From an uncultured Planctomycetales bacterium (lineage in GTDB: Bacteria > Planctomycetota > Phycisphaerae > UBA1845 > PWPN01), in assembly GCA_964548565.1 (NCBI GenBank), contig CAZJTF010000001.1, forward strand, positions 212 through 64,211: DNA of 64,000 bases, read 5' to 3'. A model generated the notes under the pieces. It worked only from the letters and a program-made list of their open reading frames with translations, searched no databases and was not told where the DNA came from. Shown in pieces: positions 6,379-41,281 of this stretch. Both the position numbers and the translations under genes were made by a program. Position 1 is the first letter of the stretch, and the number at the start of each line of letters is the position of its first letter.

Positions 6379-7695
6379 TCAGGGCGACTCGGTGAACGTC
6401 GTGACTCCTGACCCGCGGACCCGGGTCGCAAGAGCGGCCGCAATCAGGAGAGCCAGCGAGGCCGCCAGCAGACCCGGGCGGTCATCGTGATAGCGGTCCT
6501 TGAGCACGCCGGTGACCCACGGGCCCATGAACCCGTTCACCAGGTTGCCGAAGGAGTTGATCAGCGCCAGGCCGGTCGCCGCGGCCGTGCCCGTCAGAAA
6601 GGCCGGTGGGATCGCCCAGAACGGCCCCAGCGTGGACCAGATCGCGCCGGCCGCCGCGCAGAGCGCGAGCAGCACGAGAATCGGCGAATGAGCGCGTGTG
6701 CAGGCGAGCAGACTCGCGGCGCCCAGCGCTGCGCAGATCGCCACATGCACGCGTCGCTCGCCGGTGCGATCTGAGTGCCGCCCGACGATCACCATCGCGA
6801 CCATCGCGACGAAAAAGGGAATCGCCGACACCAGCCCGACGCTTCGGTTGTCCGTCAGGCCGGTCGCCTGCTTGATGATCGTCGGCAGCCAGAAGTTGAT
6901 CCCCTGGAAGCCGAACATGATGCCGCAGTAGATGAGCGTGAGCAGCCAGACGCGCCCGCTGCCGAAAGCATCACGGATCGCGGAGTGCCGGTGCGCGTGC
7001 CGCTGGGCTTCCTCCGACGCGAGTGCGCCCGTCAACACCGCACGTTCGTCCGCGGAGAGCCACCGCGCGCGGGCAGGGTTATCCGGCAGGAGGGCGAGAA
7101 TCGCGAAGCCGCCGAGCACGCTCGGGATCCCCTCCAGAAGGAAGAGCCACTGCCAGCCATGAAGGGGATGCCCCAGCAGCGGGCGTCCATCGAGGCCGAG
7201 CAGCAGCCCCGCGAGCGGCGCTCCGACGAGCCCGGACATGGCGGTTGCCGTCAGGAACCACGCGACTGCCCGCGCCTGCTCCCGCACGGGGAACCAGTAG
7301 GTCAGGTAGAGCAGGATCCCTGGTGCGAAGCCCGCCTCGGCCGCCCCGAGGAGAAATCGCAGCAGGTAGAAGCTCGGCGCCCCGCGCACGAACATCATTG
7401 CGGACGAAATAATGCCCCATGTGATCATGATCCGCGCCAACCAGATCCGTGGGCCCACGCGCTGCATAATCAGATTGCTGTGGACTTCGAACAGGCAGTA
7501 GCTGACGTAGAAAACGCCCGCGCCGAACCCGTACACCGCCTCGCTGAAACCCAGGTCCGCGTTCATCGTCAGCTTGGCGAATGAGACGTTCACCCGGTCG
7601 AGGTAGTTGAAGATGTAGAGGATGACGATCGGCGGAATCAGCCGCAGCATGACCCGGTTGATGACGTGATCGGCGGCGACGGCGGTTGCGGGCAT
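6379..7695 (-). CDS. MFS transporter, anion:cation symporter (ACS)-like
   Basis: 438 aa with about 12 TM segments. YLDRVNVSFAKL near TM1 is the ACS-family signature (hexuronate/galactonate/tartrate-type permeases). Confidence 0.8.
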   Translation of the reverse strand: MPATAVAADHVINRVMLRLIPPIVILYIFNYLDRVNVSFAKLTMNADLGFSEAVYGFGAGVFYVSYCLFEVHSNLIMQRVGPRIWLARIMITWGIISSAMMFVRGAPSFYLLRFLLGAAEAGFAPGILLYLTYWFPVREQARAVAWFLTATAMSGLVGAPLAGLLLGLDGRPLLGHPLHGWQWLFLLEGIPSVLGGFAILALLPDNPARARWLSADERAVLTGALASEEAQRHAHRHSAIRDAFGSGRVWLLTLIYCGIMFGFQGINFWLPTIIKQATGLTDNRSVGLVSAIPFFVAMVAMVIVGRHSDRTGERRVHVAICAALGAASLLACTRAHSPILVLLALCAAAGAIWSTLGPFWAIPPAFLTGTAAATGLALINSFGNLVNGFMGPWVTGVLKDRYHDDRPGLLAASLALLIAAALATRVRGSGVTTFTESP

Positions 7696-7720
7696 GAGCG
7701 AATCATAACGCGGAGGATGG

Positions 7721-7845
7721 CTGATTGTTGATTTTCAATTGTCGATCGTCGATTTTTGATTCCCTGGCGGGAGTGCTTGCAGACAGGACGAAGCCGTCGG
7801 ACCCGGATCGAGAATCAACAATCGCACATCGTCGATCGAAATGCC
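7721..7845. repeat. intergenic short-period repeat element: AT-richer repeat arms flanking a GC-rich core
   Basis: The left arm carries gattgttgatttt and gtcgatcgtcgattttt. The right arm carries aatcaacaatcg (reverse complement of attgttgatt) and catcgtcgatcgaaat. The arms flank a ~45-nt GC-rich core (ccctggcgggagtgcttgcagacaggacgaagccgtcggacccgg). It fills the dus-MFS gap. Confidence 0.5.
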
Positions 7846-8994
7846 CTACCCCAGCTCCGCGCCGGCGGCGATCAGGTCGCCCGGGCCGGTCTTGCGCAGG
7901 CCCGGCGGCCACTCCCGGGCGGGGTCGTACCACTCCTCCAGCACGCGGCGCCAGTCTCCCGTCGTCTTCGCGCGGATGAAAGCGTTCCGCACGTGGAGGT
8001 AGTGCGGGTGCAGTTCGCTGTACTTGATCCCGAACTTGCGCATCACCTGCCCGGCCTTCGCCTCGCCGTACACCTCGACGGTCCAGGCGAAATGCTGCGC
8101 GATGGTGCGGCCCTGGGCGGCGACGGAAGGAGCGGGAAATTGCGGATTGCGGATTGCGAATTGCGAATTGCACCGTACGACCGGTGGGTCGACCCCGTCG
8201 ACAGGCTGCTCCGGTTCTCCGTTCCGCAATCCGCGATTCGCAATCCGCAATCCCAGTTTCGCCCGGCACTCCTCGAAGATCCACGGGTTGCCGATGCAGC
8301 CCCGGGCCACGGTCACGCCATCTACCCCCGTCTCGTCCATCATGCGGATGCAGTCGTCGGCCGTGAACAGATCGCCGCTGCCCAGAACCGTCCGGTCGCC
8401 GACGTGCCGCTTCACGCGGGCGAGAAACTCCCAGCGGCTCGGGCCCACATACCGCTGCTTCACTGTGCGTCCATGGACCGTGACACCGTTGATGCCGAGT
8501 GCGAACGCGCCGTCCAGGATCTCGAAGAAGTTCCGCTCGCTCTCCGGGCTGTCGTCCATGCCGCGGCGCATCTTCACCGTGACCGGACGGCGCCTGTCGA
8601 CGGCCGCCAGGACATTCCGCACGATCGCGAGCGCCGTCTCCGGATCCGACAGCAGGAACCCGCCTCGGCATCGCCCGAGCACCTTGCGCACCGGGCAGCC
8701 GAAATTGATGTCCACCACGTCGTAGCCGGCGTTCACCAGTGCGTCGGCCGCGAGCGCGAATGTTTCGGGCTCCGCCCCCATGAGCTGTCCGCCCACGGGG
8801 TGATCATCCGGCGCCACCGTCGTGATCGCCCGCTGCTTCCTGCCCTTCTGGATCACGAGCTTATCGAGCACAACTTCGTTCAGCGTGTAGACGGCGCCAT
8901 GCATCCGAGCGACCCGGCGCATGGGCAGGTCGCTGTAGCCGCTGAGGGCGGCCTGCACGATGGGGAAATCGATTTCAAGCGTCCCGATCTTCAC
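7846..8994 (-). CDS. dus: tRNA-dihydrouridine synthase carrying an in-frame ~38-aa insertion
   Basis: FMN TIM-barrel motifs: QAALSGYSDLPMR, VDINFGCPVRKV, VTVKMRRG, VTVHGRT, GSGD, ARGCIGNPWIF. GTG start. The linker to the helical domain is interrupted by GLRIANRGLRNGEPEQPVDGVDPPVVRCNSQFAIRNPQF. Confidence 0.85.
   Translation of the reverse strand: MKIGTLEIDFPIVQAALSGYSDLPMRRVARMHGAVYTLNEVVLDKLVIQKGRKQRAITTVAPDDHPVGGQLMGAEPETFALAADALVNAGYDVVDINFGCPVRKVLGRCRGGFLLSDPETALAIVRNVLAAVDRRRPVTVKMRRGMDDSPESERNFFEILDGAFALGINGVTVHGRTVKQRYVGPSRWEFLARVKRHVGDRTVLGSGDLFTADDCIRMMDETGVDGVTVARGCIGNPWIFEECRAKLGLRIANRGLRNGEPEQPVDGVDPPVVRCNSQFAIRNPQFPAPSVAAQGRTIAQHFAWTVEVYGEAKAGQVMRKFGIKYSELHPHYLHVRNAFIRAKTTGDWRRVLEEWYDPAREWPPGLRKTGPGDLIAAGAELG
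8142..8253. repeat. palindromic heptad-repeat element embedded in frame in dus
   Basis: The left arm at 8142-8171 is GCGGATT GCGGATT GCGAATT GCGAATT GC. The right arm at 8226-8253 is GCAATCC GCGATTC GCAATCC GCAATCC. The arms are about 27/30 complementary and enclose a 54-nt GC-rich loop. Confidence 0.8.
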
Positions 8995-9025
8995 GAACCT
9001 GCGGCATCCTCTTCAAAAGGGGCGG

Positions 9026-9493
9026 CTACTGCAGCGAAATCCGCGTTCCGCGATACGTCCCCAGCGGCCCGGCGTCGCCGTTCGTATCGTTGAACTCGAC
9101 GCAGAACTCGTCGCCGTCCTCCGTGAAGATAAACGTGACGATCGCGCGATAATCCGGGTCCCCGTTCTTGGGCCGCAGCAGCATGCCGAGCCGATTGCCC
9201 TCCAGGCGCGTCGGATCACTCACCAGGTCGCGATCGCCCGAATTGTCGTACGTCACGCCCGTCACGTGGACAAGCTCACCTTCCTGCACGAAGGTAATCG
9301 TGCCACGCAGCAGGAAGATGGAGTCGCCGGCGTAGCGGTACGTGCCCGCGACGTTAATCGAGGCCGAGGGCTGCTCCGCCGGACAGGTTTCCGCGGTGAG
9401 CGGCGCCCCGGTACACGACAGCATCGCCAGCGCCGCCCCCGCGGTGACGCCCACGAGCGCAAAGACCATCCGGTGAACGCGAACAGGTTGCAT
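9026..9493 (-). CDS. hypothetical lipoprotein
   Basis: Signal peptide with lipobox (VTAGAALAMLSC). GGGAGGA lies 6 nt upstream of the ATG. No recognisable domain. Confidence 0.6.
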   Translation of the reverse strand: MQPVRVHRMVFALVGVTAGAALAMLSCTGAPLTAETCPAEQPSASINVAGTYRYAGDSIFLLRGTITFVQEGELVHVTGVTYDNSGDRDLVSDPTRLEGNRLGMLLRPKNGDPDYRAIVTFIFTEDGDEFCVEFNDTNGDAGPLGTYRGTRISLQ

Positions 9494-11815: not shown

Positions 11816-13288
11816 ATGATGAAGAGGAGACCAGGTATGAACAGGTTTGTGAGGCTAGTGGCTGGAGCCGGCTTGTGCGTCGGACTCTCGTGGACGACCT
11901 CTCTCGCGCAGAGCAGCGGCGGATCGAGCGGGTCCGCGGGTTCGAGCGGCAGTGGCACCTCCGGCGGGACGTCCGGGAGCAGCATGAACCAGAGCAGCGG
12001 CTCCACCAACCGCAACACAGGATCCGACACGAATCGCACGTGGAGCAGCGGCACCAACCGCGATACGTGGGGCAGCAGCAACAATCGTGACACGTGGGGC
12101 ACCAGCGACAACCGCAACACGTGGAGCAGCGGGCGCGATCGTGACAGCTGGAGCGACAGCGATCGTGGCGGCCAGAACCGTTCCCGCTACGGCTCACAAA
12201 GTGACCGGTACTCCGGCACCCAGAACCGCTACAGCCAGAATCGGTATCTGTCCGACGACCGCGACCGGAACTCGGACCGGTTTGGCTCGTCCGGCACGGC
12301 CGACCGTTCGCGCTATGGTTCCAGTCGCACGGGATGGAACCAGGACGACCGCAGCTCGGATCGCTACGGTGACAGCGGGCGCTACGGATCGAGCCGGTAC
12401 GGCGATACATACCGCGACCGCTACGGCTCCGACCGGTTCAACTCGTCCGACGATCGGTATGGCTCGACGTACGACTCGGATCGCTACGACTCCAACCGCT
12501 ACGGTTCCTCTTGGGATCGGTCGGATCGCAGCGACCGCAATATGAGCGGGCGATACGGCTCGTCCTACGGGAGCGACCGTGGCTACTCCGGGCAGGATCG
12601 CGCCGATCGCTACGGATCGAGCACCAGCGACCAGACGTGGCGCAGCTCCCGGACGGATCAGTACCGCGATCTCGCCCGCGATGGCAGCGATCGTGACAGC
12701 GAATTCTGGCGGTCGGGCGAAGACGATCGCTATCGCGACAGGGATTGGCGTGACCGCTACACGTCGGATTCCGACACGTACCGCTACAGTTCGCGGTACG
12801 GCTCCGATCGTTACTCGGATGATCGCGACATGGATCGCAGCCGCAGTACCTACGGCACGCAGGACCGCTACGGCTCCTCGTATGACCGCGACCGCAACTA
12901 CACCAGACGGTACGACAGCTCGGGCACGGGTTACGGCAGCAACCGGACCGGCACGGGAAGCTCGTACGACAGCAACCGGTACGGATCAGGAAGCTCGTAC
13001 AACACGAATCGGTACGGGTCAGGGAGCGCGTACGACAGCAGCCGCTACGGCTCGGGCAGTTCTTACGATCGCTCGGACCGCTCGACCAGCGGGTACCGCA
13101 CGTACGGTTCAGACAAGCGCGACAGCGACTGGAACCGCAGCTACCGATCCAGCGGCGACAACGATAACGACCGGTACGACAACCGTTCGTATCGCAGCAA
13201 TCGCTCGTGGGATTCAGACGACGACACCGGGTCGACCTGGCGGACCTCGCGTTCGCGTACGACCTGGAGCGATAACGATCAGGACTGA
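11816..13288 (+). CDS. secreted low-complexity S/R/D/Y/G/N-rich protein (DRYGSS / NRYGSGSSYD repeats)
   Basis: Signal peptide MMKRRPGMNRFVRLVAGAGLCVGLSWTTSLAQS. The following ~460 aa consist almost only of S, R, D, Y, G, N, T and W, with dozens of [DN]RYG[SD]S units. Followed by an intrinsic terminator. Confidence 0.65.
   Translation: MMKRRPGMNRFVRLVAGAGLCVGLSWTTSLAQSSGGSSGSAGSSGSGTSGGTSGSSMNQSSGSTNRNTGSDTNRTWSSGTNRDTWGSSNNRDTWGTSDNRNTWSSGRDRDSWSDSDRGGQNRSRYGSQSDRYSGTQNRYSQNRYLSDDRDRNSDRFGSSGTADRSRYGSSRTGWNQDDRSSDRYGDSGRYGSSRYGDTYRDRYGSDRFNSSDDRYGSTYDSDRYDSNRYGSSWDRSDRSDRNMSGRYGSSYGSDRGYSGQDRADRYGSSTSDQTWRSSRTDQYRDLARDGSDRDSEFWRSGEDDRYRDRDWRDRYTSDSDTYRYSSRYGSDRYSDDRDMDRSRSTYGTQDRYGSSYDRDRNYTRRYDSSGTGYGSNRTGTGSSYDSNRYGSGSSYNTNRYGSGSAYDSSRYGSGSSYDRSDRSTSGYRTYGSDKRDSDWNRSYRSSGDNDNDRYDNRSYRSNRSWDSDDDTGSTWRTSRSRTTWSDNDQD
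12959..13072 (+). repeat. 33-nt tandem repeat (about 3.4 copies) encoding SSY[DN]xxRYGSG
   Basis: Copy 1 at 12959-12991 is agctcgtacgacagcaaccggtacggatcagga. Copy 2 at 12992-13024 is agctcgtacaacacgaatcggtacgggtcaggg. Copy 3 at 13025-13057 is agcgcgtacgacagcagccgctacggctcgggc. A partial copy follows. Confidence 0.7.
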
Positions 13289-30752: not shown

Positions 30753-31709
30753 ATGAAGAAGCTCATTGCGGCGGTTGTCGCCATTTCCATCGCCTGCTGC
30801 ACGGGCATTTCCTGCAGTCCCGGTGCCCTGAATCTGCACGACTGGCAACGAGATCTGCTGTTCAGCGGCGGTGCGCTCGCGGCGGCACTCCTGGCCGACC
30901 AGGCTCAGCACAACGCAGATAACACCACGGACGGTGACGGCGCGGAGCAGGAGATCCCCACCATAGAGGGTCCCCAGGGCCCGCCAGGGCCGGAGGGGCC
31001 ACAGGGTCCACAAGGCCCGCAGGGAGACACCGGCGCGACAGGTGCGACCGGGGCCGCGGGGGCAACCGGCGCCACCGGTGAGACTGGTCCTCAGGGACCG
31101 GCAGGCCCGGCCGGCCCCCAGTATTTCGACCTGTTCATTGACGACTTCTTCGCGGCCGAAGGCAACGGGATGGTTCCGCTGCCCATCGATATTCCCGGCA
31201 CGACAGGCTTTGTCGAGATCGCCGAACCCGCACTGGGCCAGCCGGACATCACCTCCGGCGAGGCCCGCGTGCTGGCGTTCCGGTTCTCCGTTCCGCAGAG
31301 CTATACGACCGGCAACCCCGTGACGATGCGGCTGTCGCTCTACCGCAGCGGTGCCGCGCCGGCGGGCTGCTTCAGCTTCCGGCTGGACGCGCGTCGCCTC
31401 CGCGCCGGCTCGGACATCGAGGTGTACGGCGAACCGCGGTGGGTACTGTCGACACTCGACCCGGCGGCGATCAGCGGCACCGGCCACGTGTTCTGGCTGA
31501 TCGATCTGCCAGTCAACTCGGCCGACGGGCTGAACTTCCCGAACGATTTGGTCGCCGGTCAGATGCTGGCATTCGAACTGGGCTCCGATCTGAACGACAA
31601 CGGAGTGTATACGCTCCTGAGCGTTGAAATCTTCGAGTCGGGAACGCCCGCGCCCACGAGCGGAGGCACGATTTCGAGCAACCCGCCGACGTGCGGCGGC
31701 CCCGCGTAA
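30753..31709 (+). CDS. collagen-like triple-helix-repeat lipoprotein
   Basis: Lipoprotein-type signal [16 protein letters not shown]. 17 uninterrupted G-X-Y triplets, then a ~195-aa non-repetitive C-terminal domain. Confidence 0.75.
30969..31121 (+). repeat. G-X-Y collagen-like repeat tract (17 triplets)
   Basis: [51 protein letters not shown]. Confidence 0.85.
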
Positions 31710-36945: not shown

Positions 36946-38244
36946 ATGTCCAACGGCATCTCGCGTCGCACGTTCATGCAGTCCACCCTGGCGACCGGCG
37001 CGGCGCTGGCCGCCCTGCGCCCCGGCCTGGCCGCGCTCGGCGCCAACGACCGCATCCGCATCGGCATCATCGGAACCGGCGGACGGGGCAACGCCCACAT
37101 GGCGGACCTCCAGGCGCGCAAGGACGTCGAGATCGTCGCGATCTGCGACGTGGACGACGCCCAGCTCGACCGTGGGTCGAAGAGCGCCGCCGAACTCGGC
37201 AGCCGCCCCCAGCGGTTCAAGGACTTCCGCCGCCTGATCGACATCAAGGACACCGACGCCGTCTTCATCACCGCGTGTTGCCACTGGCACGCCATCCCGG
37301 CGATCGCCGCCATGCGGGCTGGCAAAGACATCTACCTTGAGAAACCCGCCGGCCACACCATTCACGAGTGCCGCGTGATCGCGGACGTGGCGAAGGAAAC
37401 CGGCCGCATCGTCCAGATTGGCACCCAGCACCGCTCGTGCCCGCACTGGACGCACGCCGTCGAGCGCATCAAGGCCGGCGAACTCGGCCAGGTGACGGCC
37501 GCCCACGTCTGGAACGCCTGGAGCCTCAAGGAAATGGGCGGCGGCCTCGGCAATCCGCCGGACAGTGATCCGCCCGCGGGCGTCGATTACGACATGTGGC
37601 TCGGCCCGGCGCCGAAACGCCGCTTCAACCCGGCGCGCTTCCACTTCGGATTCTACTTCTTCCAGGATTATTCCAGCGGTATGACCGTGGCGTGGGGCGT
37701 GCATCTCTTCGACGTGGTGATGTGGGCCCTGGGCTACACGGTGAAGTCAGCCGCGGCGACCGGCGGCATCTACGTCCTCAAGGACGCCCGCGACACGCCC
37801 GACACGCTGCAGGCAGTGTTCGACTGCGGCGACTTTGTCATGGATTACACGCTCAGCCAGACGAACGGCTGGCGCCAGTTCGGCGACATGGACCATGGGA
37901 TCACGTTCGTCGGCACGAAGGGCGCGCTCGAGATCAACCGCCGCGGCTACCAGGTCTACCACGAGCCCGACCGCGGCACGCGCAAGCCGTACCACACCGA
38001 GCCGGTGCAGGGCAACGACACCGTCCACCACCACGCGAACTTCTTCGACTGCATGCGCTCCCGCAAGCCCACCCACGCCGACGCCGAGGCCGGCTATGTC
38101 GGCGCCGTCCCGGGCTACCTCGCGCTCATCTCCTGGCGCGTCGGACGCATGGTCCACTGGGACACGAAAACCGGCACAATCCTGAATGACCCCGAGGCTG
38201 CCCGTCTCCTCACCAAGGAGTACCGCGCGCCCTGGAGTCTGTAA
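36946..38244 (+). CDS. Gfo/Idh/MocA-family oxidoreductase with a twin-arginine signal
   Basis: MSNGISRRTFMQSTLATGAALAAL (TAT signal), the Rossmann motif IRIGIIGTGGRG, and EKP. Confidence 0.8.
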   Translation: MSNGISRRTFMQSTLATGAALAALRPGLAALGANDRIRIGIIGTGGRGNAHMADLQARKDVEIVAICDVDDAQLDRGSKSAAELGSRPQRFKDFRRLIDIKDTDAVFITACCHWHAIPAIAAMRAGKDIYLEKPAGHTIHECRVIADVAKETGRIVQIGTQHRSCPHWTHAVERIKAGELGQVTAAHVWNAWSLKEMGGGLGNPPDSDPPAGVDYDMWLGPAPKRRFNPARFHFGFYFFQDYSSGMTVAWGVHLFDVVMWALGYTVKSAAATGGIYVLKDARDTPDTLQAVFDCGDFVMDYTLSQTNGWRQFGDMDHGITFVGTKGALEINRRGYQVYHEPDRGTRKPYHTEPVQGNDTVHHHANFFDCMRSRKPTHADAEAGYVGAVPGYLALISWRVGRMVHWDTKTGTILNDPEAARLLTKEYRAPWSL

Positions 38245-38305
38245 CAATCGACATCCGATCTGGCTCGCGTCTGCCTCCTTGCCGCCGTGGCTGGAGGAGG
38301 CGAAG

Positions 38306-41212
38306 ATGATCCGCGACATGACGTCTTCCAGGATCAACCCCGTCGAGAAAGGTGCAGGTCTCATGTTCGGAGCCTCTCTTGTTGTCCTGTCCAGCGTGAC
38401 CGCCATGGCCCAGATGACTCCCGTCCAGCTGCGGTGCGAGTACCTCGTGAACCCACTTGGTCTTGACGTGCGCCAGCCCCGTCTGAGCTGGGTTCTGCAG
38501 GCGTCCGGGCGTGCGCAGGTCCAGACTGCCTACCGGATCCTCGTGGCCGACAGTCGCGACGCACTCGCGAAGGACGACGGTAACCTGTGGGACAGCGGTA
38601 AGGTCGACTCCGACGAGACCATCCACATCGCGTATGACGGCAAACCGCTCACGTCAGGCCAGACCGTCTTCTGGAAGACCCGCGTCTGGGATAAAGCCGG
38701 CGCCGAATCCCCGTGGAGCGAGCCCGCCTCCTGGCAGATGGGCCTGCTCGAGCCGGATGACTGGACGGCGAAGTGGATCGGCAAGTCCGACACGCCGCCG
38801 AACGGCCCGCTGCCCTCGCTGCCGCCCGCGATGCTCCGCAAGGACTTCAACGTCGCGAAGCCAGTGGCCCGGGCGACCGCGTTCGTGACTGCGCTCGGTC
38901 TCTACGAACTCCGTCTCAATGGTCAGAAGGTCGGCCAGGCGCTCCTCACGCCCGAGTGGACGGACTACGCCACCCGCGTGCAGGTCCAGGCGTACGACGT
39001 CACCCCGATGCTCAAGGAGGGTGATAACGCCGTGGGCGCGCTCCTCGCCGACGGCTGGTACGCCGGGCGCATCGGGATCTCCGTCATCCTCGGCGCCGGC
39101 GGCCAGGTACGCGGCTTCTACGGACGCTGGCCGCACCTCCGCATGCAGATGCAGATCGAGTACGCCGACGGCAGCCGCGAAACGGTGATCACCGACGAGA
39201 GCTGGCAGTCAACGACAGACGGACCAATCCGTAAAGCGTGCATTCTCGACGGCGAAGTCTACGACGCGCAAAAGGAGCAGCCAGGTTGGGACGGGCCAGG
39301 CTTCAAGGCCGAGGGGTGGAAGTCCGCGCACATCGAGCCGTCATTCCCGGTCAAGCTCGTCGCGCAGCGGCACGACCCCATCCGCGTCACGCAGGAGCTC
39401 AAGGCCGTCGCCGTCACGGAGCCCGCGAAAGGCATCTACGTCTTCGATTTCGGCCAGAACATCGCCGGCGCCTGCCGACTGAAGATCCAGGGCAAGGCCG
39501 GACTGAAGGTCCGCCTGCGTCACGCCGAAGTGCTGCAACCCGACGGCAACATTTACCGCGACAACCTGCGGATTCACGGCGAGCTCGGCGCGCGCCAGGA
39601 GGACGAATACACCTGCCGCGGCGAGGCCGAGGAAACGTGGGTACCGCGTTTCACCTACCACGGCTTCCGCTACGTCGAGGTCGCCGGCCTGCCGGCGAAG
39701 CCCGCTCCCGAGTTGCTCACCGGGCTGGCCTTCCACTCGGCCCCGCCGATGACCAGCGGCTTCGAGTCTTCGAGCGCGCTGCTGAACAAGCTGATGCTCA
39801 ACACCGTCTGGACGCTCCGCGACAACCTGCACAGCATCCCGACCGACTGCCCGCAGCGAGACGAGCGCATGGGCTGGACGGGCGACATTCTCGCCTTCGG
39901 TCAGACCGCCTGCTTCCAGATGGACATGGCCGCGTTCCTCGCCAAGTGGCTGCAGGATCTGCGCGACGACCAGGCCAGGGACGGGCGTTTTCCTGACTTC
40001 GCCCCGCACCCCTTCGACCCGGACAAGCGTTTCAGCGGCGTACCCGCCTGGGGCGATGCCGGCGTGTTCGTGCCCTGGTACCTGTGGGTCAGCTACGGCG
40101 ACAAGCGTGTCCTCGACGAGCACTACGACGCCGCCCGGCGCTGGGTCGACTGGATCCACTCGAACAACCCCGACCTCCTCTGGAAGAACAACCGCAACAA
40201 CGATTACGGCGACTGGCTCAACGGCGACACGCTCAAGCTCACCGGCTTCGGCTTCCCGGAGGGCAAGGCCCAGATGTCACCGGAGGTGGTGGGGACGGCC
40301 TTCTTCCGGCAGTCCGCGCTGCTCGTCTCGAAGATGGCCGGCATCCTCGGCCGGACGGAGGACGCCGCCCGGTACGGCAAGCTCGCCGCCGACATCAAGT
40401 CCGCGTTCAACCGGGCGTACGTGAAGGAAGACGGCACGATCGAAAACCTCGATCCGCCCAAGGACCCGAACCAGAAGCCGGTCCTCCACGGCAACACGCA
40501 GTCCGACTACGCGCTGGCGCTCGATCTCGACCTGCTGCCGCCGGAGAAACGCCCGCTGGCCGCCAACCTGATGGTCAAGGCGATCGAGAACTACAAGTGG
40601 CACATCTCGACGGGCTTCCACACGACGGTCCGCCTCATGAAGGAGCTCACAAAAGCCGGGCGCAACGACGTGGCCTATCGCCTGATCAACAACCGCACGA
40701 TCCCCTCGTGGGGCTATGAGATCGACCACGGCGCGACCACCATCTGGGAACGCTGGGACGGCTGGGTGGAGGGCCGCGGATTCCAGGACCCCGGCATGAA
40801 CTCGTTCAACCACTATGCGATCGGCGCGGTGGCCGAGTGGATGCTCCGGGTGATCATCGGCATCAATCCTGACGAGGACAGCCCCGCGTACAAGCGCTTC
40901 ACGCTCCGCCCGATGCCGGGGGGAGGCCTGACGTGGGCCAGGGGGCATTACGACTCGATCCGCGGCCGGATCGCCTGTGACTGGCGTATGGAGGGCGACA
41001 CGCTGCACGTCGTCGTCACGATTCCGCCGAACACCAGTGCCACAGTCTGCATCCCCGCTCGCGACCGTACCGCCGTCCAGGAAATCCCCCAGGCCGGCAC
41101 GCAGAGCATGCAGGGCGTCACCTTCAAGGGTATGCAGGACGGCGCCGCCGCCTTCGAAGTCGGCTCTGGCACGTACCACTTCACCTCCGCCGGCTACAAG
41201 ATCCCCGGCTGA
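38306..41212 (+). CDS. alpha-L-rhamnosidase (glycoside hydrolase family 78)
   Basis: ATG at 38306 after GGAGGAGG. LRCEYLVNPLGLDVRQPRLSWVL, QTAYRILVA, LWDSGKV, FWKTRVWD, WSEP..W.MGLL and CPQRDERMGWTGD are GH78 hallmarks. Confidence 0.85.
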   Translation: MIRDMTSSRINPVEKGAGLMFGASLVVLSSVTAMAQMTPVQLRCEYLVNPLGLDVRQPRLSWVLQASGRAQVQTAYRILVADSRDALAKDDGNLWDSGKVDSDETIHIAYDGKPLTSGQTVFWKTRVWDKAGAESPWSEPASWQMGLLEPDDWTAKWIGKSDTPPNGPLPSLPPAMLRKDFNVAKPVARATAFVTALGLYELRLNGQKVGQALLTPEWTDYATRVQVQAYDVTPMLKEGDNAVGALLADGWYAGRIGISVILGAGGQVRGFYGRWPHLRMQMQIEYADGSRETVITDESWQSTTDGPIRKACILDGEVYDAQKEQPGWDGPGFKAEGWKSAHIEPSFPVKLVAQRHDPIRVTQELKAVAVTEPAKGIYVFDFGQNIAGACRLKIQGKAGLKVRLRHAEVLQPDGNIYRDNLRIHGELGARQEDEYTCRGEAEETWVPRFTYHGFRYVEVAGLPAKPAPELLTGLAFHSAPPMTSGFESSSALLNKLMLNTVWTLRDNLHSIPTDCPQRDERMGWTGDILAFGQTACFQMDMAAFLAKWLQDLRDDQARDGRFPDFAPHPFDPDKRFSGVPAWGDAGVFVPWYLWVSYGDKRVLDEHYDAARRWVDWIHSNNPDLLWKNNRNNDYGDWLNGDTLKLTGFGFPEGKAQMSPEVVGTAFFRQSALLVSKMAGILGRTEDAARYGKLAADIKSAFNRAYVKEDGTIENLDPPKDPNQKPVLHGNTQSDYALALDLDLLPPEKRPLAANLMVKAIENYKWHISTGFHTTVRLMKELTKAGRNDVAYRLINNRTIPSWGYEIDHGATTIWERWDGWVEGRGFQDPGMNSFNHYAIGAVAEWMLRVIIGINPDEDSPAYKRFTLRPMPGGGLTWARGHYDSIRGRIACDWRMEGDTLHVVVTIPPNTSATVCIPARDRTAVQEIPQAGTQSMQGVTFKGMQDGAAAFEVGSGTYHFTSAGYKIPG

Positions 41213-41223
41213 CACTGATGTGG

Positions 41224-41244
41224 GAAGTGCGAAGTGAGAAGTGC
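41224..41244. repeat. three tandem heptads GAAGTGC GAAGTGA GAAGTGC
   Basis: Read directly from the sequence, immediately upstream of a GC-rich hairpin. Confidence 0.6.
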
Positions 41245-41257
41245 CCCCGTTCCAGTA

Positions 41258-41281
41258 GCGTCCGCCCCCCATGGCGGACGC
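41258..41281 (+). terminator. GC-rich hairpin downstream of the GH78 gene (no clear T-tract)
   Basis: Perfect 9-bp stem gcgtccgcc / ggcggacgc with a 6-nt loop. Confidence 0.3.

Follow-up and report, generated by a model that had tools for sequence, protein, structure and literature searches.

How does a long palindromic repeat come to lie, in frame and free of stop codons, inside the gene of a conserved enzyme? The question is raised by 64,000 nt of DNA from an uncultured Planctomycetales bacterium of the Phycisphaerae (assembly GCA_964548565.1, contig CAZJTF010000001.1, positions 212 to 64,211; hereafter the window, from whose first letter all coordinates are counted), in which the gene dus, encoding a tRNA-dihydrouridine synthase, carries two inverted arrays of tandem 7-nt units (heptads) around a G+C-rich core. 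An earlier reading of the letters alone (the sequence-only reading) saw in it a mobile palindrome, similar to repetitive extragenic palindromic (REP) sequences or to MITEs (miniature inverted-repeat transposable elements), that had landed in a permissive linker. Of this proposal the insertion, the linker site and the predicted stem stand, whereas REP- or MITE-like mobility is not supported, and the element is probably better understood as a simple sequence repeat (SSR) that has changed in place.

A heptad hairpin in the dus coding sequence

Read directly in the interval 7000-9000, positions 8142-8171 are GCGGATT GCGGATT GCGAATT GCGAATT GC and positions 8226-8253 are GCAATCC GCGATTC GCAATCC GCAATCC. 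Tandem Repeats Finder (TRF) recovers both arrays with a period of 7, as about 4.9 copies of AATTGCG with 92% matches at 8138-8171 and about 4.4 copies of TCCGCAA at 8223-8253. An inverted-repeat search pairs 8144-8171 with 8226-8253, two 28-nt arms that are 93% complementary and lie 54 nt from each other, and these are the longest inverted repeat of the whole window among arms separated by at most 150 nt. The heptad hairpin is thereby confirmed, with the four-heptad arms, the 54-nt G+C-rich core and the arm complementarity of about 27 in 30 that the sequence-only reading had given. The whole hairpin takes up 118 bases, and its arms end in partial heptads (GGGAAATT... and ...CCCAGTTTC). Its periodicity lies well above chance: the degenerate two-unit pattern GCGRATTGCGRATT, with up to two mismatches allowed, has 10 matches against 1.97 expected, a number that none of 100 shuffles reached, and three heptad-periodic runs are present in the window, where 200 Markov simulations gave 0.25 on average and never more than 2. 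The element is thus composed, as heptanucleotide SSRs are, of head-to-tail 7-nt units in at least three to four copies and above chance.

The minus-strand ORF (open reading frame) 7846-8994 crosses the element without stop or frameshift, as had been claimed, and reads ...GLRIANRGLRNGEPEQPVDGVDPPVVRCNSQFAIRNPQF... at this place; the GCGGATT unit is stop-free in all six frames and encodes cyclic ADCGLRI or NPQSAIR. The Dus enzyme looks intact, carrying a floppy extra loop. The Pfam family Dus (PF01207) matches residues 15-244 with E = 5.9e-51 and 173.9 bits (cut-off 20.4), the invariant columns of an alignment of 32 orthologues are retained (for example C100, K141, H174 and R176), and the closest homologues are annotated as tRNA-dihydrouridine synthases of Phycisphaerae and Planctomycetota. 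Residues 10-244 align to the TIM barrel of the solved structures 1vhn and 6ei9 (E. coli DusB), and the alignment resumes only at residue 281 (1vhn) or 290 (6ei9), so that the junction between barrel and helical domain takes up about 36-45 residues in the window protein and 2-12 in the solved enzymes; E. coli DusB has about 12 residues where the window protein has about 45. This is the linker to which the element had already been assigned from the letters. An AlphaFold2 model built from the 32 orthologues has a mean predicted local distance difference test score (pLDDT) of 84.6, and in it helices 239-253 and 291-309 flank a coil whose successive 10-residue blocks score 52, 35 and 68. The 33 extra residues are accordingly predicted to be disordered, and such a low-confidence coil agrees with the permissive loop that the sequence-only reading had supposed.

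As RNA, the sense strand of the element is predicted to fold with -70 kcal/mol (z = -5.7; none of 200 shuffles was equally stable), which supports, as a prediction, the proposed mRNA stem of ~30 bp. The antisense strand folds about as stably as the sense strand, even slightly more so, and therefore nothing in the fold points to the mRNA in particular; G-U pairs favouring the sense transcript were looked for in the stem and none was found. A double-stranded stem of about 28-30 bp in the dus mRNA might possibly act as a substrate of RNase III or as an obstacle to ribosomes, and the DNA itself could extrude as a cruciform. Rfam 15 gave no match in the whole window at gathering thresholds, and at E <= 1 the interval 7600-8400 matched only plant miRNA precursor hairpins at chance level (25.7 bits against a threshold of 168); a scan of 7500-9300 for terminator and promoter consensus sequences flagged nothing at the element.

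The linker site in relatives

Linker length, taken as the stretch from GNPW to RKFGIKY, was compared across the 115 top homologues and the metagenome loci. It is 47 aa in 99 of the 115 homologues and in the metagenome loci that hold both motifs (always, save for one copy of the P0038 type), against 80 aa in the window, where the net gain of 99 nt keeps the frame exactly. The extra peptide is thus absent from these orthologues, as the sequence-only reading had anticipated, and the comparison of lengths shows the heptad insert to be derived relative to the ancestral linker of 47 aa.

The same site was compared in a sister lineage (L002), taken from the independent Logan assembly SRR22910561, whose protein is 78% and whose dus gene is 77.6% nt identical to that of the window. 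On the coding strand the window reads CTG / GGATTGC x4 (one unit GAATCGC), a 49-nt core, GCAATYC x5 / TTT CCC, and L002 reads CTG / AA AATGCGG x4, a 26-nt core, CCGCATT x3 / GAGTTTT CCC. The two are collinear with identical borders: both pairs of arms align, as does the left third of the core, 32 nt of the window core are absent from L002 as an alignment gap, and the predicted hairpin is significant in both (z = -5.9 in the window and -3.7 in L002). This alignment shows a putative hairpin with the same borders to be common to the window and its sister lineage. A further lineage (L001) has CTG GGC (AATCCGC)x5 GCG TTG, a single array with neither core nor partner, which aligns with the right arm of the window element and lies at the same linker site. 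Unit number and unit sequence therefore vary between window, L002 and L001 at one locus, in the manner of an SSR. In the closest insert-free relative (L206) the empty site reads TTG TTG GCG GGT ACG CCT GTA CCT GCG CCG CCC, and relative to it about 5-6 native codons (AGxPxP) have been replaced in both the window and L002. The collinear, diverged version in L002 and the single array of L001 at this site argue for inheritance with change in place and not for repeated transposition.

The units of the window and L002 are one base apart, GGATTGC versus GGAATGC, and the partner arms differ correspondingly, GCAATCC versus GCATTCC. When a helix of 35 pairs is laid on the alignment of the two, 82.9% of the cells pair, compared with 24-47% when the partner is slid by 1-3 columns, and the helix contains three double changes (A-U to U-A) and six one-sided changes that still pair. 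As a shuffle control with only two sequences is not significant (55/500), the arm-to-arm coupling is suggested but not proven. The window (GLRIANRGLRNGEPEQ...) and L002 (KMRNAECGMRDEENAR...) encode unrelated peptides, and what is retained between the two lineages, as far as the alignment indicates, is the nucleic-acid hairpin and not the protein sequence.

The linker has also lengthened in other ways. Sixteen homologues have longer linkers, of 48-94 aa, and nearly all of them fall in the subclade of the window protein in a neighbour-joining (NJ) tree (linker masked, no bootstrap), where they are interleaved with the 47-aa proteins P0010, P0011, P0016 and P0025. Heptad DNA is found at the linker in the window, L002 and L001, and the linkers of L003, L004 and L005 hold non-repetitive G+C-rich inserts. 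Because long and 47-aa forms are interleaved and the inserts differ in kind, the linker is read as a hot spot: it appears to be a general site of length change in this subclade, with several independent expansions, the heptad element being one. The L003, L004 and L005 inserts were considered as decayed hairpins; their folds are not significant (z = 0.0, 0.3 and -1.6), and they are therefore treated as separate linker expansions. Non-heptad expansions, of 1-47 aa, were observed in P0004, P0005, P0006, P0008 and P0014 (the 'GYPPP...' group), P0005 having the longest insert of all, and further ones in P0020/P0038/P0044, P0007, P0009 and P0017/P0037/P0049 and at loci L003, L004, L005 and L207.

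Paired heptad arrays beyond dus

One genome per species was scanned for (GCRATYC)x3 and the matches were examined as loci of 8 kb. At least 120 stretches were found, where about 17 would be expected by chance (own estimate, uniform composition). The matches listed come from Planctomycetota (including metagenome-assembled genomes, MAGs, of Phycisphaerae, Phycisphaerales and Tepidisphaerales), Acidobacteriota, Verrucomicrobiota, Gemmatimonadota, Chloroflexota, Cyanobacteria, Bacteroidota and others. Many of the matched loci hold further arrays on other units, up to 12-13 per locus, and the 332 arrays counted in them represent 123 distinct units. In the viral collection IMG/VR the same pattern occurs in 86 stretches and three permuted heptads of the same composition in 50, 16 and 39; since the permuted heptads are also frequent, heptad arrays appear to be common generally and the GCRATYC unit only moderately favoured. 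Additionally, 623 kb of Phycisphaerae DNA flanking dus holds 24 arrays per Mb, compared with about 4 per Mb in simulated sequence, and several of these arrays lie directly past the dus stop codon, like the palindrome at 7713-7841 of the window. Stop-free heptads are not enriched among the array units (48% against 58% expected), and a proxy of ORF depth for coding versus intergenic arrays discriminates weakly in these G+C-rich genomes.

Among the matches listed, the arrangement (GCGGATT)n - core - (AATCCGC)n occurs at 31 loci, with cores of 12-240 nt that are unrelated by eye. The polarity of such pairs was taken from genome and viral contigs (loci L006-L125 and L208-L397). For neighbouring arrays of the GCGGATT type, 8-250 nt apart at the genome loci, the order GCGGATT...AATCCGC was found 31 times among the matches listed, the reverse order once and direct pairs five times. 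Inverted pairs on other units likewise have more G than C in the 5' arm (16/20, 14/15 and 9/9 in three sets, 39 to 5 in total, p ~1e-7), and the ordinary perfect hairpins of the same loci have little bias (35 to 30 and 110 to 67). The dus element follows this rule, its G-rich arm being 5', and is one of a broad class in which heptad arrays are paired around unrelated cores with fixed polarity. Because the favoured order is identical to its reverse complement, the G-rich arm comes first in a transcript or single strand from either side. The polarity hints at an additional directional mechanism or selection, more specific than generic slippage. No description of such a polarity rule or of recurrent in-frame heptad hairpins was found in the open-access literature, nor any paper there containing the repeat-encoded peptide strings.

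Several of these arrays also lie in frame in genes elsewhere (Table 1); the coding or intergenic calls at these loci are stop-to-stop ORF spans, and Pfam confirmed five of the proteins. Their predicted stems have z between -2.9 and -7.7. In TruB and in two PSD1 orthologues it is conserved coding sequence native to the gene, such as HDWDVKHxIRLIVTSHTYRQSS, that lies between the arms, which therefore did not arrive together with a core. The two PSD1 orthologues carry their arms at the same positions with units of the GGATTGC type in one and the GGAATGC type in the other, the same switch that separates the window from L002.

Table 1. Coordinates of the dus gene, its heptad element and related heptad structures in the window and at other loci
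Feature	Coordinates	Strand	Description	Basis
dus, tRNA-dihydrouridine synthase	7846..8994	-	382 aa, intact	ORF and Pfam PF01207
Sense-5' arm (G-rich)	8223..8255	-	G GGATTGC GGATTGC GAATCGC GGATTGC GGAAC; translated GLRIANRGLRN	TRF, inverted repeat, codon layout
Core/loop, G+C-rich	8172..8222	-	translated roughly GEPEQPVDGVDPPVVR; small GTCGAC...GTCGAC sub-hairpin	sequence and fold
Sense-3' arm (C-rich)	8138..8171	-	GCAATTC GCAATTC GCAATCC GCAATCC GCAATT; translated CNSQFAIRNPQF	TRF, inverted repeat, codon layout
Degenerate heptad palindrome	7713..7841	.	GATTGTC-type units, core ~45-50 nt	TRF 4.6 copies, 72% matches; inverted repeats 27-30 nt, 77-78% complementary
UvrA	L066:4410-4530		in-frame hairpin encoding ALIADCGLAIADSTGRTPDQQSAIRNPQSAI	
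UvrA	L113:6018-6062		in-frame single array	
TruB	L076:1035-1320		in-frame arms	
Ser/Thr kinase	L060:1160-1290		in-frame hairpin in activation-loop region	
PSD1/DUF1553	L049:3245-3420; orthologue L035:5225-5440		in-frame arms	
ArsA ATPase	L075:5145-5255		in-frame hairpin in linker between its two halves	

A composite element was observed twice in an Opitutaceae MAG (L019), at 344-515 and 1459-1631, 1.1 kb apart and with the internal part opposite in orientation. It is composed of outer GCGGATT/AATCCGC arms, an inner CCGGAAT array and G+C-rich palindromes, and it is the only sampled case in which complete elements, with their cores, resemble copies of each other. When (NPQSAIR)x6 was searched against proteins, all that came back were short ORFs across long arrays; these are probably spurious, and the search is uninformative on genuine genes. 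Among such products, P0121-P0220 are ORFs of 31-74 aa over AATCCGC arrays that carry the JGI label 'major type 1 subunit fimbrin (pilin)' and once the NCBI label 'fimbrial subunit'; these fimbrin- or pilin-labelled ORFs on repeat DNA are almost certainly spurious gene calls.

The window itself contains other repeats. The degenerate palindrome at 7713-7841 is intergenic, directly past the dus stop codon and before the start, at 7695, of a gene of the major facilitator superfamily (MFS) type. It has the architecture of the dus element yet is not a copy of it: BLAST found no similarity to the dus core, and its fold does not reach significance (z = -0.67). Within the AT-rich arm of this palindrome, at 7731-7702 on the minus strand, lies a sigma-70-like pair of hexamers, TCAACA-18-TATGAT. 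A heptad array at 41215-41245 (GTGGGAA GTGCGAA GTGAGAA GTGCC) begins 3 nt past the stop of a 1008-aa ORF (38186-41212) and a G+C-rich hairpin, GCGTCCGCC-CCCCAT-GGCGGACGC, follows at 41258-41281; no partner array in inverted orientation was found. The intergenic location typical of SSRs is thus seen for the 7713-7841 and 41215-41245 repeats and not for the dus element. Upstream of dus, two heptad-like units (GCGGAAC GCGGATT, minus strand) at 9035-9057, in the 3' end of a small lipoprotein-like ORF (9026-9493), could be a remnant or have arisen by chance. Positions 8210-8228 (the core end and adjoining arm bases) share an exact match of 19 nt, TCCGGTTCTCCGTTCCGCA, with 31279-31297, inside ORF 30753-31709; with the core alone as query, BLAST of the window reports at this site a 16-nt exact match of its arm-proximal end. 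Both places are weakly 7-periodic, and the match probably reflects chance or a shared degenerate mini-array of the GCGGAAC type. Tandem repeats of longer period, presumably coding, were observed at 12037-12162 (27/54 nt), 12932-13068 (33 nt) and 30966-31075 (9/27 nt).

Origin of the dus element and its counterparts

Taken together, these observations point, with rather modest confidence, to a heptanucleotide SSR hairpin that would be tolerated because the linker is permissive and would change at its site through slippage and the correction of one arm by the other. The element would have arisen once, at a length-unstable linker, in an ancestor that the window organism shares with the L002 lineage. 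Replication slippage would then add and remove 7-nt units and homogenise each array, and intrastrand template switching (quasipalindrome correction), or else selection for pairing, would keep the arms complementary. Persistence would be filtered by the need to stay in frame and free of stops; with a stop-free unit, a net length divisible by three and a linker that is flexible, the element would do the enzyme no harm, and it would persist for that reason. Several points weigh against this account. A simple model of slippage and hairpin formation does not predict the strong polarity, and the GCRATYC family recurs in distant phyla and is 2-5x commoner than the control heptads, which would allow for a process specific to the sequence. 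Both slippage and template switching are inferred from the patterns described, and the part of the source genome covered is 64 kb. The covariation between the window and L002 comes from two sequences and a single heptad position. Moreover, L001 pairs with an insert-free relative in the unbootstrapped NJ tree, so that a single origin for all three heptad-bearing lineages is not established.

Could the element instead have been moved into dus, as a non-autonomous element related to REPs, REPINs (REP doublets forming hairpins) or MITEs with the heptad arrays as terminal inverted repeats, by a transposase encoded elsewhere, as has been suggested for Rickettsia palindromic elements and for REPs within genes? 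Its palindrome with AT-richer arms does resemble terminal inverted repeats, and one arm sequence can occur at several loci of a single genome (L036/L054, L018/L055 and L038/L065). The arm polarity of 31 to 1 is what defined transposon ends would give, the Opitutaceae contig L019 holds two composite copies with related cores 1.1 kb apart, and intragenic in-frame REPs are documented, uvrA included (PMC3733652). Such an arrival nevertheless seems unlikely. Comparison with the empty site of L206 reveals no target-site duplication (TSD), the junctions CTG/GGATTGC and GCAATTT/CCC lacking any direct repeat, and native codons have been replaced rather than interrupted. The GTAG or CGTC tag of REPs is absent, and the palindrome, at 118 bp with a 54-nt core, exceeds the 20-40 bp of a REP. 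When the two cores and the two complete elements were compared by BLAST with the window and with all fetched loci (~1.6 Mb), only arm matches and the 19-nt match mentioned above were returned, without a second copy of the dus core, and in the loci examined it is the arm unit that recurs elsewhere and not the whole element. The 31 same-arm elements have unrelated cores (matches listed, by eye) instead of the conserved interior of a MITE family, and the arms around native coding sequence in TruB and PSD1 imply that arms and core are not one travelling unit. At the outer ends of several arrays the repeat decays into partial, degenerate units (not quantified), arrays of permuted control heptads are almost as frequent, and about 53 kb of the relatives' flanks hold no further arrays. 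The features that define REPs (tag, short palindrome) and MITEs (TSD, conserved interior) are therefore missing from the dus element, and, with a collinear version in the sister lineage as well, the landing of a REP- or MITE-like element that the sequence-only reading had envisaged is not borne out.

A nucleic-acid structure under selection, with the peptide as a by-product, is an equally doubtful alternative; it would be an mRNA stem acting through RNase III or through ribosome pausing at a domain boundary that aids co-translational folding, or a DNA or RNA site for a heptad-binding protein. A stem of 28-30 bp is of sufficient length for RNase III, pairing is kept in two lineages at 77.6% nt identity despite a changed unit and peptide, the polarity rule suggests a constraint on a transcript or single strand, and several of the in-frame cases lie at domain boundaries or loops (the Dus and ArsA linkers, the kinase activation loop). 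This location pattern is equally explained by tolerance of insertions, however, and most orthologues, members of the same subclade included, do without such a structure; L001 has one arm only and hence no stem, the equal stability of sense and antisense folds gives no strand-specific signal, and Rfam has no match above threshold. That the inserted peptide is itself functional, for instance as an Arg-rich linker extension contacting tRNA, is very improbable. The arm-encoded parts are indeed basic (LRIANRGLRN, AIRNPQ) and the insert adjoins the helical domain, which in Dus enzymes binds tRNA, but even the sister lineage has a different peptide (KMRNAECGMRDEENARSPAPHSELRIPS), a search with 60 aa of the insert and its immediate flanks found no database protein sharing three 5-mers, a disordered coil is predicted (pLDDT 35-68), and the repeat unit itself determines the residues, GCGGATT giving in any frame one of the two cyclic peptides named above. 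Finally, palindromes and short tandem repeats are a known trouble for short-read assemblers, and a chimeric or fold-back join at the repeat of this metagenome contig was considered; given the exactly kept frame with its 99-nt gain, the collinear hairpin with the same borders in the independent assembly SRR22910561 and the presence of a heptad array at the same site in an NCBI MAG, an artefact is hardly credible.

A broader proposal is that paired inverted heptad arrays form a distinct, largely undescribed class of elements across phyla, made or kept by a dedicated directional mechanism or as a selected signal in a transcript or single-stranded DNA, and not by generic slippage, with the dus element as one translated member. 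It is suggested by the polarity, by arms that stay complementary through a change of unit, by cores that may be new or native and by the repeated entry in frame into housekeeping genes, and it is offered tentatively, its chance of being correct being small without being negligible.

The known systems nearest to the dus element are palindromes in frame within genes and bacterial heptameric SSRs. Rickettsia palindromic elements (RPEs), which Ogata and co-workers are said to have described in 2000, reportedly lie in frame in protein-coding genes and form families of homologous sequences; the dus element likewise is a palindrome in frame within a conserved ORF and absent from orthologues. REPs are palindromes of 20-40 bp with a GTAG or CGTC tag, present in near-identical copies and associated with REP-associated tyrosine transposases (RAYTs) (Di Nocera et al., 2013, PMC3733652); intragenic REPs occur in frame, with uvrA as a recurrent host (PMC3733652). 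Like intragenic REPs and RPEs, the heptad hairpins are palindromes of tens to about 150 bp that lie in frame in housekeeping genes, add 20-45 residues at tolerated sites and may occur twice per ORF, and uvrA recurs here as in the REP survey (PMC3733652), at L066 and L113. Unlike REPs and RPEs, the dus element has arms of tandem 7-nt repeats with neither tag nor conserved core, native coding sequence can lie between heptad arms, and among relatives the locus changes in place. MITEs have TSDs, an interior conserved within the family and a parent insertion sequence (review PMC10969869); the dus element shares with them its size range, its inverted terminal sequences and its in-frame site within a gene, and differs by having neither TSD nor conserved interior.

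As for SSRs, two papers (PMC4692102 and PMC4679880, both citing Mrazek et al., 2007) describe 7-nt units as slippage-prone and over-represented, and the frequency of the permuted control heptads agrees with this view. It also agrees with Xanthomonas, where heptad arrays occupy the same gene intervals in related strains and differ in length and sequence (PMC4692102). Published examples of heptanucleotide SSRs are GGGAATC in Xanthomonas, GGGGA(C/T)T and short tandemly repeated repetitive (STRR) sequences in Nostoc, and TAACTGA in Beggiatoaceae (PMC4692102, PMC4679880), where one inverted repeat is reported among 170 sets (PMC4679880). The arrays described here share with bacterial heptanucleotide SSRs their tandem, over-represented 7-nt units, their mostly intergenic location, their locus-bound variability and a proposed origin in polymerase slippage. 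Unlike the published arrays, which are described as single, direct and intergenic, they form inverted polar pairs that fold into long hairpins, and the dus element is moreover translated inside an enzyme. In intrastrand template switching, one arm of a quasipalindrome is copied onto the other; mutation templated in this way has reportedly been shown by Ripley and by Lovett and co-workers for short quasipalindromes in E. coli reporter genes, and an analogous arm-to-arm copying, inferred here, would hold the heptad arms complementary during drift.

For the biology of Dus itself the element is probably of little consequence. The locus offers, on the other hand, a clean, dated case of a simple-repeat hairpin entering a conserved enzyme in frame, with the stem kept while the peptide changes. 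Relative to REPs, RPEs and heptameric SSRs, the paired, polar, hairpin-forming and in-frame arrangement of heptads is apparently undescribed. Such hairpins recur in frame in housekeeping genes of Planctomycetota, Acidobacteriota, Gemmatimonadota and others, and they yield spurious small ORFs and odd low-complexity inserts in protein databases. If the polarity does reflect a mechanism, it would bear on how bacterial genomes make and tolerate long hairpins and on how the linkers of their proteins lengthen.

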